This document shows positions 23,258 to 30,623 of a stretch of 64,000 nt of DNA, in pieces. The DNA is from an uncultured Acidobacteriota bacterium (GTDB lineage Bacteria; Acidobacteriota; Vicinamibacteria; Vicinamibacterales; CAVVIG01), in contig CAVRXZ010000017.1 of the NCBI GenBank assembly GCA_963725105.1, positions 3,975 to 67,974 on the forward strand. The letters run 5' to 3'. Under the pieces are notes generated by a model, which did no database searches, was not told the origin of the DNA, and saw only the letters and a program-made list of their open reading frames with translations. Each line of letters starts with the position of its first letter. Positions within the stretch are counted from its first letter, which is position 1. The position numbers and the translations under genes were made by a program.

Positions 23258-23334
23258 CCCGATTGTATTTCGACAGAAACCTTACATTTACCGGCGTTTA
23301 ACGTGACCGGTCTGGTCTGAGCTGGAGGTTGTCA

Positions 23335-26300
23335 ATGCGGGAGAGGTGGAGGCTCACCATGCTGAGATGTGTCAAGGCGGCCTTGGTGTTCGTGGCGCTG
23401 CTGGCTGTTCCGGCAGCCGTCTACGCGCAAACGGCGATCGTGGGTACGGTCAGAGACGCATCCGGGGGGGTTGTGCCGGGCGTCACCGTCGAGGCGTCCA
23501 GCCCGGTGCTCATCGAAAAGACGCGGTCGGTTGTGACCAGCGCGACGGGGCAGTACACGATCGAGGACCTGCGGCCCGGGACGTACACGGTGACGTTCAC
23601 GCTGACCGGTTTCGCCACGGTCAGACGCGAGGGCATCGAGTTGACCGGGACGTTCATCGCCACCGTCAACGCCGAGATGAGGGTTGGCGGCGTGTCGGAA
23701 ACGATCACCGTCAGCGGTGAAGCACCCGTCGTCGATGTGACGAGCTCGCGCAGTCAGGAAACCATCAGCGGCGAGACGGTGGCCCAACTCCCCACGTCCC
23801 GACAATACGGCGCCCTCATTTCGCTCGTTCCCTCGATCAACGTGCAGGGCGGCAATGAGGTCGGCGGGGCCGGGGGGAACATCTTCAACGTGTTCCAGAT
23901 TCACGGCGGACGTCGCAACGAAGGACAGGTCCTGGTCGACGGCATGAGCGCCGGCTACCAGGGCATGGGCGTGTCCAGCTACGTAACCGAGATCGGCAAC
24001 GCTCAGGAAATCAATTTCAGTTTGGCCGGCGGCCTGGGCGAGGCGACCACCGGCGGCCCGCAGCTGAACATCATCGGCAAGCAGGGCGGCAACATGTTTG
24101 CCGGGAGCTTCTTCATCACCGGCACGGGCAGCGGGTTCCAGGGCAGCAACATCACGCCGGAGCTGGAGGCCAAAGGCTTCCATCAGGCGCAATCGGTGGC
24201 GGAGTCGTGGGACATCAATCCCTCGTTCGGCGGCCCGATCGTCAAAGACAAGCTGTGGTTCTTCGGCACGTTCCGCTATCAGAGCAACGACCAGAATGTC
24301 GCCAGCATGTACGTCAACCTGAATGCCGGCAATAATGCGGCATGGACGTATCTTCCCGCCGACGGCCAGGGCGGCCGGCCGCTGGAGCAAGCGATCGACG
24401 ACGGTCGGTGGAAGAACGGCTCCTTGCGGCTGACGTGGCAGCCGACGCCGAGAAACAAGATCAACTACTGGTCGGACGTCCAGTACATCTGCCAGCACTG
24501 TATCCAGGGCGGCGATAGTTCCGGGCTCACCTTCGGGGGGTTGATTGCCTCACCCGAGGCGCTGCAGCGGGTCGAAAACCGCCCGAACCAGATGACCCAG
24601 ATCAGCTGGACGTCTCCGTTGACGCCGCGTCTGCTGCTCGAGGCCAACGTCCAACTCGGCCCGTACTTCTGGTGGGGCGGTAGCCAGAAGAATCCATACG
24701 ATACGACGACCATTCAAGTGCAGGACGACGGCGGTAACGGCTTCATTCCGGGGATCAACTACCGGTCGTCCCCTTGGTCGAACAATACCGGCTATACGAA
24801 CATCATCCAGGGCTCCGCGTCGTACGTGACCGGGTCGCATTCGGCGAAATTCGGCGCCCGCTACCACTCCAACGATTCGACGTTCCCAAAGAACTACTAC
24901 AACAATTCCCAACTCAAGTACTTCTTCAATAACGGCGTTCCCTACCAGTTCACCGCGTACGCCGACCAGGGGTCGGACCAGCACCAGCATCAGGGCATGG
25001 TCGCCCTGTATGCGCAGGATCGGTGGACGCTGCGCCGGCTCACCCTGCAGGGCGGTCTCCGCTTCGAGCGCCTCGCCGATTCGTTCGACCAACAGCAGAT
25101 GGGGCCGAATATCCTCGTGCCGACCGCCATCGTGTTTCCTGCCTCGAAGGGCCCGCTCGACCACAAGGATCTACAGCCCAGGTTCGGCGCGTCCTACGAC
25201 GTTTTTGGCAACGGGAAGACCGCGGCCAAGTTCTTCATGGGCGAGTACGTGACGACCGTGAACACCGTCGATGAATGGCTGCACTACAGCCCGGCGGGAG
25301 CACTGTCGTTCGTTTCTTCGGATGCCAACCGTTCGTGGGCGGACAACAACAACGACTACGTCGTGAATTGCGACATACTCAATCCGGCGCGCAGAGCCCC
25401 GCAACGACCGGCAGCATCGACACATGTGGCGCGGGGAATTCCTCTTTCTTGAAGACCGTCTCCCCCTACCAGATCGATCCGGCGGCCACCACGGGCTGGA
25501 ACACCCGGGAGCACAGCTGGGACCTGATGGCTGGCATCACACAGCAGATCGCTCCGCGGGTATCGGTGGAGGTGGCTTTCAATCACCGGAGCTGGGGCAA
25601 CCTGACGACGGTGATCAACCGCGCCCTGACGCCCGCCGATTTCAATCCGTTCATAGTCAACGTGCCGAATGATCCCAAACTACCAGGCGGCGGAGGCTAT
25701 CCGCTGACCTTCTACGAGATCTCGCCTGCAAAGTTCAATCAGTTCGATAACCTCTTCACGCTCGCCGACAATGCCGGCGGCACCACGAACAGCTACAAAG
25801 GCGTCGACTTTAACGTGAACGCGCGCTTCAAGGAGGTGGTCATCCAGGGTGGTTTCAGCACTGGAAACGTCATCGAGGACGATTGTGGCGTCGTGCATCA
25901 GCACCCTGAGACCTTTATTTCTGCGTACCTGGGCGGAGGCACGCTCGATGCCTTCTACAACTTCCTCCCCGTCGGCGTACCTGGGCAATGGCCGCAGTCC
26001 TTCTGCCATCGCGAGTCGGGGTGGCAGACGAACGTCAAGGCTCTGGCGACGTACAACGTGCCCAAGTTGGACCTGCTGCTCAGCGGAACGGTCCACAGCC
26101 AAGCGTTTGCGGGGAGCAACTTCCCGGCAGTCTCCAGCCAGAGCCTGTCTGGATTGCAGGGGCTGCTTTTCTTCCAAACCAACCTCGGAAGGCCGTTCTC
26201 TGGTGCGCTGCCTTTCCAGTTCTTCAACATCGTCGAGCCCGGTAACGATGTACGGCGATCGGATAACGGGGGTCGATTTCCGGGTAGGAAAGAACCTGAG

Positions 26301-26475
26301 GTTCGGGCGGACCCGCACGTTGATTGCGCTCGACATCTTCAACCTGGGCAACTCCAACGCGACGGACGTCTATCAGCTGAGTTACGGCGTCATCACTCCA
26401 AACCCCAGCTATCTCAACCCGCTGTCAATCACGCAGGCGCGCCTCTTCAAGATCAGCGCGCAGTTCGACTTCTGA
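23335..26475 (+). CDS. TonB-dependent receptor-like outer-membrane protein with N-terminal carboxypeptidase-regulatory-like domain; two apparent frameshifts (about 25385-25400 and about 26235-26250)
   Basis: RBS ggagg at 23324-23328. Signal peptide is ...VFVALLAVPAAVYA. The CarboxypepD_reg-type domain reads QTAIVGTVRDASGGVVPGVTVEASSP...TGQYTIEDLRPGTYTVTFTLTGFATV. Three track ORFs (23329-25452, 25275-26489, 25849-26475) join as ...DYVVNCDILNPA/AQSPATTGSIDTCG... and ...LPFQFFNIVEPG/TMYGDRITGVDFRVGKNLRF.... The C-terminus ARLFKISAQFDF is typical of beta-barrel proteins. Confidence 0.75.
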
Positions 26476-26478
26476 GAA

Positions 26479-26557
26479 AGGGCAGGTAGGGCGGGAGGCG
26501 CGGGAAGGGCAGGAAGGGAAATACCCTTCCAGCCCCTCCTGCCTTCCAGCCCTACCG
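26479..26557. terminator. Long GC-rich imperfect hairpin between convergent genes (putative bidirectional terminator)
   Basis: Left arm is agggcaggtagggcgggaggcgcgggaagggcaggaaggg, the loop is aaata, and the right arm is cccttccagcccctcctgccttccagccctacc. About 19 positions next to the loop pair, with a few mismatches. It lies between the stops at 26475(+) and 26560(-). Confidence 0.55.
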
Positions 26558-27982: not shown

Positions 27983-28120
27983 GACGTTTTTCTCCCATGA
28001 TCTCCCAGCGGGGCGGTCCATTCTATCGGTATCCGATCAGCGGTGCGAAGTGTAACACCTGCCCGGGTCGTGACACTTCCTACTGAACGGCTCACTTGCA
28101 GCCCGTCAGAAGGAGGCAGC

Positions 28121-28885
28121 ATGGCTCGCATCGATGAGATCGCGGCGGATCTGTATCGGATTTCGATTTACGTGCCGCAGTTCGACCTGCAGTTCAACCA
28201 CTTCCTGGTCAAGGACGAGCAGCCGCTGCTGTTCCATACCGGCATGCGACGGATGTTCCCCGAAGTCCGCGAGGCGGTCTCGACGCTCATGGACCCCGCG
28301 TCGCTCCGGTGGATTGGCTGGAGCCATTTCGAAGTCGATGAGTGCGGCGCACTCAACCAGTGGCTCGACATCGCTCCTCAGGCGCAGCCGATCTGCACTG
28401 AGGTCGGAGCGCTGGTGAACATCCAGGATTTCGCGAATCGCCCGCCTCGCGGCCTTCGACCCGACGAGGTGATTGATACGGGGCGCCACCTGTATCGCAT
28501 CGTGCCGACTCCGCATCTGCCGCACGGGTGGGACGCCGGCATGCTGTTCGAGGAACGTGAGCGCGTGCTCCTGTGCTCCGACCTGTTCCACCAACTGGGC
28601 GAACGTGAGCCGCTGACGACCGACGATGTCGTCGATCGGTTTGGGCAGGCCATAGAGGCCTATCAGGCCAACCCGGTTCTCATGGACTACATGCCTTTCA
28701 CGGCCGAGACGCGCAATCAGCTGAAGCGGCTGGCGGCACTCGAGCCGCGGCTGCTCGCCGCCATGCACGGATCGTCGTTCAGTGGTGACGGCGCGGCCGC
28801 GCTCGAAGCGGCAGCCGACGTGATGCAGAAGCATTTGAGCGTTCCCTCGGGACCCGAAGGGCGAAAGGTGGGAGCCATTGCTTGA
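28121..28885 (+). CDS. MBL-fold protein with flavodiiron/ODP-type di-iron ligand pattern
   Basis: RBS aggagg at 28111-28116. The sequence begins MARIDEIAADLYRISIYVPQFDLQFNHFLVKDEQPLLFHTG. Ligand-type motifs are WSHFEVDECG (H-x-E-x-D-E), VPTPHLPHGW, LLCSDLF and AAMHGSSF. No signal peptide. The stop overlaps the TTG start of the downstream sigma factor (TTGA). Confidence 0.7.
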   Translation: MARIDEIAADLYRISIYVPQFDLQFNHFLVKDEQPLLFHTGMRRMFPEVREAVSTLMDPASLRWIGWSHFEVDECGALNQWLDIAPQAQPICTEVGALVNIQDFANRPPRGLRPDEVIDTGRHLYRIVPTPHLPHGWDAGMLFEERERVLLCSDLFHQLGEREPLTTDDVVDRFGQAIEAYQANPVLMDYMPFTAETRNQLKRLAALEPRLLAAMHGSSFSGDGAAALEAAADVMQKHLSVPSGPEGRKVGAIA

Positions 28886-29497
28886 CCACGCCGATCGCGA
28901 CTGTTAACGTCGCCGACGTGCCGGCAGGTCCAGATGTATCCACGCGGTCGGTTTCGGATGGTGAATTGGCGAGACGGATCGCCACGGCGTCACCAGGGAA
29001 CGCAGGAACGGAAGAGGCCGAGCTGTATCGTCGTTTCGCCCCGCGCGTGCGTCTCTACGGTATCAGGCACCTTCGCGACGAGGCGGCGGCGCAGGACCTC
29101 GCGCAGGACGTCCTCTTCGTCGCCATCGAACGCCTTCGCGCCGGATGAGGTCCGCAAGCCTGATGAAATCGGTTCCTTCATTCTTGGGACAAGTCGCGTG
29201 ATGGCTGGAGCGCTCAAGCGGACCGAACGGCGGCGTCAGTCTCTGATCGAACGCTTCGACTGGGCGGATCGCGTGGAGCCTCCGTCGGGCCTCGAACTCG
29301 ATCTCAATCGGGTCGAGCGCTGCCTGCAGGCGCTGGGCGAACGCGATCGCACTGTGCTGATTCTCTGCTTTTACGCCGAGAAGACTTCGAACGAGATCGC
29401 CCGCGATCTCGGGCTGACGAGTGGAGCGGTCCGGACTGTTCGCCATCGTGCGCTCGATCGCTTGCGACAATGCGTCGAATTGAGGACCGCAGGATGA
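28882..29497 (+). CDS. ECF (sigma-70 family group 4) RNA polymerase sigma factor, one apparent frameshift near 29140-29150; start uncertain
   Basis: Region 2 is in ORF 28882-29148 (AELYRRFAPRVRLYGIRHLRDEAAAQDLAQDVLFVAIERLRAG). Region 4 is in ORF 28934-29497 (LGERDRTVLILCFYAEKTSNEIARDLGLTSGAVRTVRHRALDRLRQC). TTG 28882 and in-frame GTG 28918 are both possible starts. Confidence 0.7.
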
Positions 29498-30069
29498 CTG
29501 ATGTGTCGTGTGCGGACCCGCTCCTCGCCGGTGATGTGGCCGACTACTGGGCCGGCGACATCGAGAAATCGACGGCAGAACGGATAGAAGAGCACGTTTT
29601 CACGTGCGCCGAGTGTGCGCGACGCCTCGCCGAAGGCGAAGCGCTCGCCAGAGCCATCGTCGACGTCGTGCGGGCAGGTCGCTTCCAGGCCGTTGTGACC
29701 GACGCCGTGCTCAATCGAATGGCACGCGAGGGCGTGCGGGTTCGCAGCTATGTGCTCGAACCGGGAACGACAGTCGCCTGCGCTGTCTGGCCGGACGATG
29801 AGGTGGTCGTGACGCGCCTTCGGGCAGACCTCGCCGGTCTCGAAACGGTCGATGTCTTGATGCAACTCGAGTCCGGCGTGGAGGTCAGCCGCGCGTCTGA
29901 TGTCCCGGTTTCCCCAGCGCAGGAAGAGATCGTGGACGCGATGTCAGCGGCGCTGCTTCGGCAGATGCCCTCGTCGCGGGTTCGAGTGAGTGTGATGGGA
30001 CGCGTTGGCGACGCCGTGCGACTCGTCGCCGAGTACTTGCTCGAGCACACGGGTAACGATCCCCGTTGA
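29494..30069 (+). CDS. Soluble zinc-binding (ZAS, zf-HC2) anti-sigma factor
   Basis: ATG overlaps the sigma stop (ATGA at 29494-29497). The sequence MTDVSCADPLLAGDVADYWAGDIEKSTAERIEEHVFTCAECARRL contains H-x3-C-x2-C. No hydrophobic transmembrane segment is present in the 191 aa. Confidence 0.7.
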   Translation: MTDVSCADPLLAGDVADYWAGDIEKSTAERIEEHVFTCAECARRLAEGEALARAIVDVVRAGRFQAVVTDAVLNRMAREGVRVRSYVLEPGTTVACAVWPDDEVVVTRLRADLAGLETVDVLMQLESGVEVSRASDVPVSPAQEEIVDAMSAALLRQMPSSRVRVSVMGRVGDAVRLVAEYLLEHTGNDPR

Positions 30070-30139
30070 CTTTCGTCTTATGTTCGCCTAATGTGCTCAC
30101 CTCCCCCCGGGCACGGGCGGGCTTGCGATTGGAGGCGAC

Positions 30140-30623
30140 ATGGACGAGAAAGCGCTCATTCTGAAAGTTCTGGAAGCGGGAAGGAACCGCGACGCGGAAA
30201 GTGATTTCACGGATCCCTCAGGATCGGTCGGACTACAAGCCGGACCCCAAATCACGCAATGCTCGCGAAATCGCGTGGCTCATCGTCCGCGAGGAAATCA
30301 TTCTCGCAGACGGGCTCGAGAAGGGCGTGCTCGAATGGGTCGACGTGCCGACGCCGGCGAGCGTCAAGGAGATCGTCGACACATACGAGCGCCATCACGA
30401 CCAGGTTACGGCAAAGCTCGAAGGCTTGTCCTCGGCGCAATGGGAGCGGCAGGTGCCGTTCATGTTCGGTGGACAGGAAGTGATGAAGGAGACCGGCTAC
30501 GAACACGTGTGGGGGTTTCTCCTCGACATCATTCACCACCGTGGCCAGCTCTCGACGTACTTGCGGCCGATGGGCGCCAAGGTGCCGTCTATTTACGGGC
30601 CGAGCGCAGACGAGGGAATGTAG
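30140..30623 (+). CDS. DinB family protein, one apparent frameshift near 30180-30200
   Basis: ATG 30140 gives MDEKALILKVLEAGRN. The sequence then continues in ORF 30201-30623 as KVISRIPQDRSDYKPDPKSRNAREIAWLI...LLDIIHHRGQLSTYLRPMGAKVPSIYGPSADE, a typical DinB_2 C-terminus. Confidence 0.7.

Follow-up and report, generated by a model that had tools for sequence, protein, structure and literature searches.

The locus described here raises the question whether a stand-alone protein of the metallo-beta-lactamase (MBL) fold, encoded together with an extracytoplasmic function (ECF) sigma factor and a soluble zinc-binding anti-sigma (ZAS) factor, controls this regulatory pair or is controlled by it. 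The three genes are located in a stretch of 64,000 nucleotides (referred to as the window) from an uncultured Vicinamibacterales bacterium of the Acidobacteriota (GenBank assembly GCA_963725105.1, contig CAVRXZ010000017.1, positions 3,975 to 67,974). In a preliminary description made from the sequence of the window, the MBL-fold protein was considered a di-iron protein that feeds into the sigma/anti-sigma switch. The results presented here suggest that the direction is probably the reverse: a conserved upstream motif follows the di-iron gene, and the di-iron family is widespread without the sigma pair. The reading that we favor, with belief and doubt in about equal parts, is that of a cytoplasmic ECF sigma/ZAS anti-sigma switch with the co-transcribed di-iron protein as its dedicated output.

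The first gene of the unit (28121–28885, plus strand) encodes a protein of 254 amino acids that matched the Pfam model PF19583 (ODP family beta lactamase) with 52.2 bits (cut-off 27.2) over profile positions 2–194 of 194. The H-x-H-x-D-H motif of canonical MBL hydrolases is replaced by H69-F-E71-V-D73-E74, followed by P131-H-L-P-H135, C152-S-D154-L-F, and M215-H216-G; the score to Lactamase_B (16.9 bits) was below the cut-off of 22.7. These four motifs, already recognized in the preliminary description, aligned with the di-iron ligands of D. gigas ROO (H-L-E-L-D-H in the first motif) and E. coli NorV (H-A-E-E-D-H). H135, the second His of PHLPH, aligned with a ligand His, D154 of CSDLF with the bridging Asp, and H216 of MHG with the last His of both proteins. 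Six of the seven positions of the ligand set of flavodiiron proteins (FDPs) and ODP, H-x-E-x-D-H...H...D...H, are kept (H69, E71, D73, H135, D154, and H216), the sole change being E74 at the fourth motif residue, which is His in ROO and NorV. The replaced His is presumably the ligand mutated in the H90A/N/D variants of the T. maritima FDP, which was among the fold matches. A sequence search of solved structures retrieved D. gigas ROO first (E = 2e-9 with the single sequence, 1.5e-13 with the family profile), followed by E. coli NorV and Moorella FprA; the chemotaxis O2 sensor ODP was found at E = 4e-4 and 1.2e-7, respectively.

Structure modeling with inspection of the metal ligands, proposed earlier as a check of this assignment, gave an FDP/ODP fold. 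The AlphaFold2 model had a mean pLDDT of 87.8 and a pTM of 0.87, and the best Foldseek matches were di-iron domains of FDPs and ODP with template modeling (TM) scores of 0.70–0.77, next to which came PqsE and true beta-lactamases. The conservation of the ligands was counted in 71 full-length representatives of 50%-identity clusters: H69 is present in 68, E71 in 65, D73 in 68, E74 in 69, H135 in 61, and D154 in 59 of them, and H216 in 48, with the remainder mostly being alignment gaps. H39, C75, H132, and C152 are also often conserved across the family, and Cys75 and Cys152 adjoin ligand residues. No C-terminal flavodoxin (FMN) domain as in FDPs was found; the protein has only the ODP/Lactamase_B match, and its homologues comprise 244–260 amino acids. 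Sequence and predicted fold place the MBL-fold protein among the di-iron domains of the FDP/ODP type, with its ligands conserved, and H-x-E-x-D-E is the signature of its whole family, as opposed to H-x-E-x-D-H in flavodiiron proteins.

The stop codon of the di-iron gene is followed by the ECF sigma factor gene, which is split over two frames in the window. Its 5' part (28882–29148, plus strand) covers region 2 up to its middle (Sigma70_r2 positions 1–37 of 71), preceded by an N-terminal tail; the remainder of region 2, the linker, and region 4 (Sigma70_r4, 50.5 bits) are encoded by the 3' part in the +1 frame (29147–29497, plus strand). The sequence TTGA at 28882–28885 had been described as an overlap of the di-iron stop codon with the sigma start; the letters are there, and the candidate sigma starts are TTG 28882 and GTG 28918, either of which leaves a gap of at most 32 nt between the two genes. 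The frame from 28882 ends at a TGA codon (29146–29148) midway through region 2 as the result of a 1-nt frameshift. After removal of one base at 29145/29146, the sequence reads '...IERLRAGEVRKPDEIGSF...', matching the intact homologue in L001 ('IEKLRAGSVRDTDQIGSF'), and '...IERLRAGEVRKPDEIGSFILGTSR...' is likewise collinear with 'IEKLRAGSVRDTDQIGSFILGMSR' of L001. The repaired sigma factor has 204 amino acids with regions 2 and 4 matched and region 3 absent, and intact homologues of 187–216 amino acids hold the same position in relatives. The earlier assignment as an ECF sigma factor was supported with respect to regions 2 and 4, and the frameshift near 29146, owing to which the gene is not a single open reading frame (ORF), had been missed. 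The best solved relative of the repaired protein was R. sphaeroides RpoE (2q1z_A, E = 1.8e-8); the matches to NCBIfam models were all below threshold and distributed over several sigma families.

The sigma TGA stop codon overlaps the ATG of the anti-sigma gene (29494–30069, plus strand, 191 amino acids) as ATGA at 29494–29497, exactly as described before. The H-x3-C-x2-C motif and the lack of a transmembrane segment that had been reported for the anti-sigma factor were reproduced as well: it contains H34-x3-C38-x2-C41, matched zf-HC2 with 25 bits (cut-off 22.2), and has no hydrophobic or transmembrane segment, with a highest Kyte–Doolittle 19-residue mean of 1.11. In an alignment of 43 anti-sigma sequences (A2; 31–59% identical to the window protein), E32, H34, C38, C41, G80, and H185 are invariant and C96, D102, R110, D112, and Y181 nearly so. 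Nearly all 43 members have a further Cys approximately 25–28 residues before H34 (C6 in the window protein), which together with H34, C38, and C41 makes up a Cys-His-Cys-Cys set like that of RsrA. With these features the protein belongs to the ZAS family and has a predicted zinc site, and the two gene products are assigned as an ECF sigma factor plus soluble ZAS pair.

The AlphaFold2 model of the anti-sigma factor (pLDDT 91.8) consists of three helices (residues 12–60) followed by a beta-sandwich (about 62–187). The N-terminal domain had ChrR as best solved relative (2q1z_B, E = 0.011). No Pfam family was assigned to the C-terminal domain in any of the 43 members, and Foldseek gave weak matches to Ig-like or phage-baseplate domains with full-length TM scores below 0.4. 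A profile search retrieved 733 proteins, of which the best 120 are all approximately 190 amino acids long and share the same architecture; no other architecture was found for the C-terminal domain among these 120. Neither of the two models of characterized families was reached, with 15.4 bits for the ChrR model TIGR02451 (cut-off 124.5) and 19.4 bits for the RsrA model TIGR03988 (cut-off 62.5). The RsrA type is a single-domain protein of approximately 100 amino acids, and the window protein has an extra domain of approximately 125 amino acids. No cupin family was matched in any of the 43 members, and ChrR was not among the top 50 Foldseek matches.

The distribution of the genes was analyzed from both sides. 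On the di-iron side, one genome per species (GTDB) was queried with the di-iron protein, yielding 80 loci. In 39 of about 45 related (Vicinamibacterales-type) loci, the di-iron, sigma, and anti-sigma genes are located on one strand, with the sigma start at −14 to about +113 nt from the di-iron stop and, in most co-directional loci, an ATGA overlap of sigma stop and anti-sigma start. All 39 are from metagenome-assembled genomes (MAGs) of Acidobacteriota/Vicinamibacterales; in these triads the di-iron proteins are 67–80% and the anti-sigma factors 39–51% identical to those of the window. On the anti-sigma side, a metagenome scan with an alignment as query gave 80 loci, 37 of which were usable with at least 1,450 nt of upstream sequence; the full triad was present in 36 of these 37 contigs. 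Two further contigs obtained from the anti-sigma side also carry a co-directional triad. The conserved synteny of the sigma factor with an MBL/ODP-like neighbor, which the preliminary description had put up for checking, was thus observed in both data sets, and its own reservation that such synteny might be lacking falls away with this result. The di-iron, sigma, and anti-sigma genes are a real conserved unit; the DinB-family gene that follows them in the window is a bystander.

Outside of the co-directional triads, the arrangement of the genes varies. Approximately six close relatives are without the pair: none was found within 5 kb in L027, L035, L041, and L042, L074 (no pair seen) ends at a contig edge, and L066 is atypical. 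A sigma pair with a divergently oriented di-iron gene is present in a MAG of the Polarisedimenticolaceae (L047) and in the complete genome of Anaeromyxobacter sp. K (L087), where the sigma gene lies upstream of the anti-sigma gene with an ATGA-type overlap and the di-iron gene is 138 nt away. The Anaeromyxobacter di-iron protein is 45% identical to that of the window and has the motifs SHYEADECG, TPHLPHGW, CGDLF, and MHG. No sigma pair was found in approximately 34 loci of other lineages (53–64% identity), which include Planctomycetota, Ignavibacteriales, Nitrospira, Sulfuricella, Deferrimicrobiaceae, Roseiflexaceae, Terriglobia, and Pyrinomonadaceae, and neighbor clustering revealed no conserved partner of the di-iron gene in these loci. 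For the di-iron family as a whole, more than 7,354 word-index matches were obtained, nearly all of 244–260 amino acids; the family comprises 223 clusters (50% identity) at E < 1e-30 and 1,206 at E < 1e-10 and is far more widespread than the sigma/anti-sigma pair. The annotation of its members goes no further than 'MBL fold metallo-hydrolase' or 'flavorubredoxin'.

The unit can occur more than once. The loci L020 and L061 are on one contig (CAWCQS010000013.1), some genomes hold two complete triads within approximately 10 kb, and in L169 (1030–1121) a second motif of the type described below and the start of a second di-iron gene follow directly after the anti-sigma gene. Duplication therefore involves the module as a whole.

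Upstream of the di-iron gene, a conserved element of the form TGTAAC-N12-CGTGACACTTCC with fixed internal spacing was found, which begins 53–80 nt before the start codon. In the window this candidate ECF-type promoter-like motif spans 28049–28084 (plus strand), with TGTAAC at 28051–28056 (candidate −35), 12 variable bases, and CGTGACACTTCC at 28069–28080. It is present in 37 of 38 co-directional genome loci (34 with the strict pattern, three as one-base or spacing variants) and in all 36 complete metagenome triads. Both strands of 875 kb of loci were searched with a position weight matrix (PWM) derived from these sites at a threshold of at least 14 bits, and almost all matches were located directly upstream of the di-iron gene. 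Exceptions were L028 and L056 with a match approximately 520–590 nt upstream of the di-iron gene, ahead of an extra gene for a protein of about 140 amino acids. Within the 64-kb window there was a single PWM match (28049–28084, 45.5 bits), nothing else reached 12 bits, and a search of the window with a degenerate pattern had an expectation of 0.03 chance matches. The extra gene (L028, 4479–4998; L056, 4406–4995; L150, 604–1145) encodes an NTF2-like protein of the SnoaL_2/DUF4440 type and is preceded by motif and leader; it is likely a second member of the regulon.

The rearranged loci allowed the assignment of the motif to one of the genes. In the divergent locus L047, it is on the strand of the di-iron gene, and none was seen before the sigma gene. 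In Anaeromyxobacter, CGTAAC-N12-CGCGCCACCTCC on the reverse strand lies ahead of the di-iron gene, and no copy was seen ahead of the sigma gene. The motif is also kept before di-iron genes that lack a sigma gene within 5 kb (L027, L035, and L042). It was not found upstream of di-iron genes in the phyla without the sigma pair. The motif goes with the di-iron gene and not with the sigma gene.

The first half of the motif equals the −35 element of ECF16 sigma factors, the promoter consensus of which is (T/C)GTAAC-N16/17-CGAA with TGTAAC as experimentally mapped −35; these factors respond to reactive oxygen species (ROS) and hypochlorous acid (PMC8315932, PMC3420878). In the motif reported here, a CGT follows TGTAAC after 12 nt and an invariant CAC after 17 nt. 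Since the spacing of the CGT is too short for a −10 element, the CAC at N17 was taken as candidate −10 core; transcription would then start a few bases past the block, at the foot of a leader hairpin. On this basis, the conserved block is inferred to be the promoter of the sigma factor encoded here. The leader of the window (28083–28116, plus strand) comprises the predicted hairpin (about 28083–28109) and the Shine–Dalgarno sequence AAGGAGG (28110–28116), with the ATG 4 nt further, and in most relatives a hairpin of differing sequence is found at the same place. We also observed that the conserved CACTTCC is complementary to the Shine–Dalgarno sequence GGAGGTG, with the variable hairpin in between (28069–28116 in the window; leaders L001–L090).

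Taken together, the following working of the switch is proposed. In the resting state, the soluble anti-sigma factor would hold the sigma factor via its N-terminal zinc-bound helical domain (C6/H34/C38/C41). A cytoplasmic signal would free the sigma factor; the most likely candidates are oxidants, nitrosative or thiol-reactive agents, and metals or other ligands, the last two being read by the unusual C-terminal beta-sandwich domain. Signal perception might take place at the Cys-His-Cys-Cys zinc site or at the conserved residues C96/D102/D112/H185, which form a cluster in the beta-sandwich. The freed sigma factor would use TGTAAC-N17-CAC ahead of the di-iron gene as its promoter, and this one promoter would drive the di-iron, sigma, and anti-sigma genes together. 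Transcription of sigma and anti-sigma genes from the same promoter would imply positive autoregulation, which is usual for ECF systems. The di-iron protein would remove or repair the stress by O2, NO, or peroxide chemistry and in this way reset the switch indirectly. Such a reset may be compared to that by thioredoxin in SigR-RsrA, an analogy in which the identity of the signal, the chemistry at the di-iron site, and the feedback loop are all inferred.

The assignment of the di-iron protein as output is based on four observations: the motif travels with the di-iron gene whatever the position of the sigma gene, further target genes bear the motif as well, the family is autonomous and ranges well beyond the sigma pair, and conservation is far higher for the di-iron protein than for the anti-sigma factor. 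Several points weigh against it. ODP is, to our knowledge, the only characterized stand-alone di-iron MBL domain, and it is a sensor rather than an enzyme. The flavodoxin domain, the electron source of FDPs, is missing here, and the tight coupling of the genes, which in some loci goes as far as an overlap of stop and start codons, is equally expected of interacting partners. A ZAS motif is no proof of redox sensing, as ChrR, RslA, and RsiW have one without thiol switching. The conserved downstream block begins 12 nt after TGTAAC, which is too near for a CGT-type −10, and the motif could belong to a factor other than this sigma factor. Finally, the sigma gene of the window itself carries a frameshift. 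Some of these points can be turned into a different role of the di-iron protein, which we judge unlikely, albeit to be kept in mind: it would bind O2 or NO, or report the iron or redox state, and gate the sigma factor by contacting the beta-sandwich of the anti-sigma factor, and the autoregulated operon would simply keep sensor, sigma, and anti-sigma factors in step. Such a role would fit the near-obligatory association seen from the anti-sigma side (36/37 loci), its survival of re-orientation across phyla, the tightly spaced or overlapping genes, and the lack of a flavodoxin domain. It would also fit the additional family-specific domain of the anti-sigma factor with its invariant polar and metal-type residues. 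Among the fold relatives are ODP, which senses O2 as a di-iron domain standing alone, and PqsE, which acts by binding a transcription factor. However, the di-iron family extends far beyond the sigma pair and is elsewhere accompanied by no conserved partner, motif-bearing di-iron copies occur without an adjacent sigma gene, the motif precedes the di-iron and not the sigma gene in divergent loci, and the identities of the di-iron protein (67–80%) exceed those of its supposed co-evolving partner, the anti-sigma factor (39–51%). If true, the protein would be the first FDP/ODP-type di-iron input to a sigma/anti-sigma switch and represent a new class of third components in ECF signaling, and this in a bacterial lineage that ranks among the most abundant in soil; as a sensor it would establish a new coupling of gas sensing to transcription.

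Two further explanations would remove the sigma factor from the picture. The upstream block might be an RNA element in which CACTTCC mimics the 16S rRNA tail and pairs with the Shine–Dalgarno sequence GGAGGTG; the leader would then hide the ribosome-binding site until opened by temperature or a ligand, with control being independent of the ECF sigma factor. Minimum-energy folds indeed paired the block with the Shine–Dalgarno region in 25 of 27 leaders, provided that the block is transcribed; any pyrimidine-rich block, however, pairs with a Shine–Dalgarno sequence. Covariation in the helix extension was not significant (Fisher p = 0.24), a U is opposite the block's invariant A in only 31 of 63 unique leaders, RNAalifold gave no consensus leader structure, and Rfam no match. 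Moreover, with TGTAAC taken as −35, transcription would start downstream of the block, and we regard an RNA element as very improbable. Alternatively, the locus of the window might be a decaying relic, with real frameshifts in the sigma and DinB genes, a sigma pseudogene, and a di-iron gene that is silent or otherwise expressed. The sigma frame does end at 29146–29148 with region 4 in another frame, DinB is split as well, and these two breaks, neither of which sits in a long homopolymer, are within 1.1 kb of each other. Against a relic stand the intact di-iron and anti-sigma ORFs, motif, and Shine–Dalgarno sequence, a third apparent frameshift in the adjoining receptor-like gene (23329–26489), and the nature of the 423,669-bp contig with the window proteins, which is of the same kind as long-read MFD contigs. 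Broken sigma or anti-sigma genes were found in five related loci (L013, L019, L021, L056, and L083), all from long-read 'MFD' MAGs, and no such breaks among the short-read MAG loci. Because of this distribution, the frameshifts in the sigma and DinB genes are probably errors of long-read assembly rather than signs of pseudogenization, and a relic is considered unlikely; a frameshift screen of the window based on GC3 was too insensitive for estimating the error rate. A programmed +1 frameshift in the sigma gene (prfB-like at GGA-UGA) was rejected, as the relatives are uninterrupted and have no stop codon at this site; the absence of a slippery P-site codon, as read from the sequence, also disfavors it.

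The switch preferred here, with the di-iron protein as output, was compared with known systems. One of the closest known counterparts is RpoE-ChrR of R. sphaeroides (ECF11, singlet oxygen), which provided the best solved relatives of both proteins (2q1z_A, E = 1.8e-8; 2q1z_B, E = 0.011). Shared features are a soluble two-domain anti-sigma factor of approximately 190–200 amino acids with an N-terminal zinc-binding and a C-terminal beta-rich domain, and coupled sigma and anti-sigma genes. The systems differ in that the window anti-sigma factor stays below the cut-off of TIGR02451 and has no cupin Pfam match in its C-terminal domain, that the first zinc ligand is Cys here and His in ChrR, and in the promoter motif; we know of no description of a conserved di-iron neighbor as a feature of ECF11. 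With SigR-RsrA of Streptomyces coelicolor (ECF12, thiol-oxidative stress), the system shares a soluble ZAS factor with Cys-His-Cys-Cys ligands and, as proposed here, an autoregulated operon. In SigR-RsrA, the regulon product thioredoxin resets the switch, and the same logic is proposed for the di-iron protein. RsrA differs by the lack of a C-terminal domain, the window protein does not reach the cut-off of TIGR03988, and promoter and regulon are different. The system thus works like RpoE-ChrR or SigR-RsrA and yet falls outside both anti-sigma families.

The di-iron protein shares with FDPs (ROO, FprA, NorV) and ODP the MBL-like di-iron fold (TM scores 0.70–0.77), the membership in the Pfam ODP family, and six of seven ligand positions, and with ODP also the stand-alone domain of approximately 250 amino acids. 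Differences to both are the identity of only 15–20%, the Glu instead of His at the fourth motif residue across the family of the window protein, and the conserved Cys75 and Cys152 beside the ligands. Unlike FDPs it has no flavodoxin domain, and unlike the ODP gene its gene is not in a chemotaxis operon. It is thus neither an FDP itself nor a near relative of ODP in the strict sense. PqsE-RhlR of Pseudomonas aeruginosa offers a precedent for a sensory role of the di-iron protein, in that PqsE, an MBL-fold metalloprotein among the fold matches, regulates by binding a regulator; it is an analogy only, as PqsE belongs to another branch of the superfamily and has a LuxR-type partner.

The anti-sigma factors of ECF16 are multi-pass membrane proteins (DUF1109 family) and not soluble ZAS factors. 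Their sigma factors (Caulobacter SigF, Bradyrhizobium EcfF, Brucella BcrS) recognize the same −35 hexamer, (T/C)GTAAC (PMC8315932, PMC3420878), and their small dedicated regulons adjoin the sigma gene, likewise here. The −10 element is CGAA at N16–17 in ECF16, whereas CGT at N12 and CAC at N17 are found here. In the main text of the ECF reclassification of Casas-Pastor et al. 2021, no lactamase- or ODP-linked ECF group is named; the sigma group may already be cataloged in the ECF Hub without a functional study. The literature searched contained no description of a combination of an ECF sigma factor with a flavorubredoxin, diiron, or metallo-beta-lactamase protein, in agreement with the preliminary description, which had not recognized it as a described system, and the module looks undescribed.

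ECF sigma factors rank as the third great pillar of signaling in bacteria, and most of their groups are without a known signal. The anatomy of the module is sharply defined, comprising a single promoter motif, a single main target, and a soluble anti-sigma factor with a novel domain. It gives a regulatory context to the large uncharacterized H-x-E-x-D-E family (more than 7,000 sequences from many phyla), and this context suggests a stress-linked role of the family, for which O2, NO, or peroxide chemistry is most likely. The module is common in Vicinamibacteria-type Acidobacteriota, a group that is abundant in soils but difficult to study; as the module is also present in the cultivable Anaeromyxobacter, it is directly testable.

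Several observations concern the neighborhoods of the di-iron gene. In Anaeromyxobacter sp. K (L087, 1616–3421), a Pyr_redox_2 oxidoreductase gene (383 amino acids) and a glyoxalase-fold gene adjoin the divergent di-iron gene. The oxidoreductase, which we take to be approximately the size of NorW, could serve as electron donor; its gene is not conserved elsewhere. In three Ignavibacteriales-type loci (L048, L057, and L062), the di-iron gene lies beside a divergent gene for a TetR-family regulator and two small conserved ORFs that had no Pfam match. An AhpD-like neighbor considered for Ignavibacteriales loci was not supported by Pfam, by which only the TetR regulator was confirmed. This neighborhood would represent a different regulatory solution for the same di-iron family.

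In the window, the three genes are followed after 70 nt by the DinB-family gene (30140–30623, plus strand, two frames), which the preliminary description had counted with the module. The position of the ORF start at 30140 was correct; its membership was rejected, as DinB adjoins the unit in only a handful of approximately 120 related loci and is not preceded by the motif, and its split near 30190 had been overlooked. Repair of this 1-nt insertion raised the score to Pfam DinB (PF05163, cut-off 23) from 31.9 to 43.1 bits and extended the match to positions 3–157 of 165. In the gap before DinB (30070–30139), a weak sigma-70 promoter, TTGACT-N17-TAATGT, was noticed by eye, for which the scanner made no call; such a promoter would agree with separate transcription of DinB. 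On the other side of the unit, a CarboxypepD_reg (TonB-dependent-receptor-like) gene (23329–26489, plus strand) looks split into the overlapping frames 23329–25452 and 25275–26489, the second of which had no Pfam match; its sequence probably contains another frameshift.

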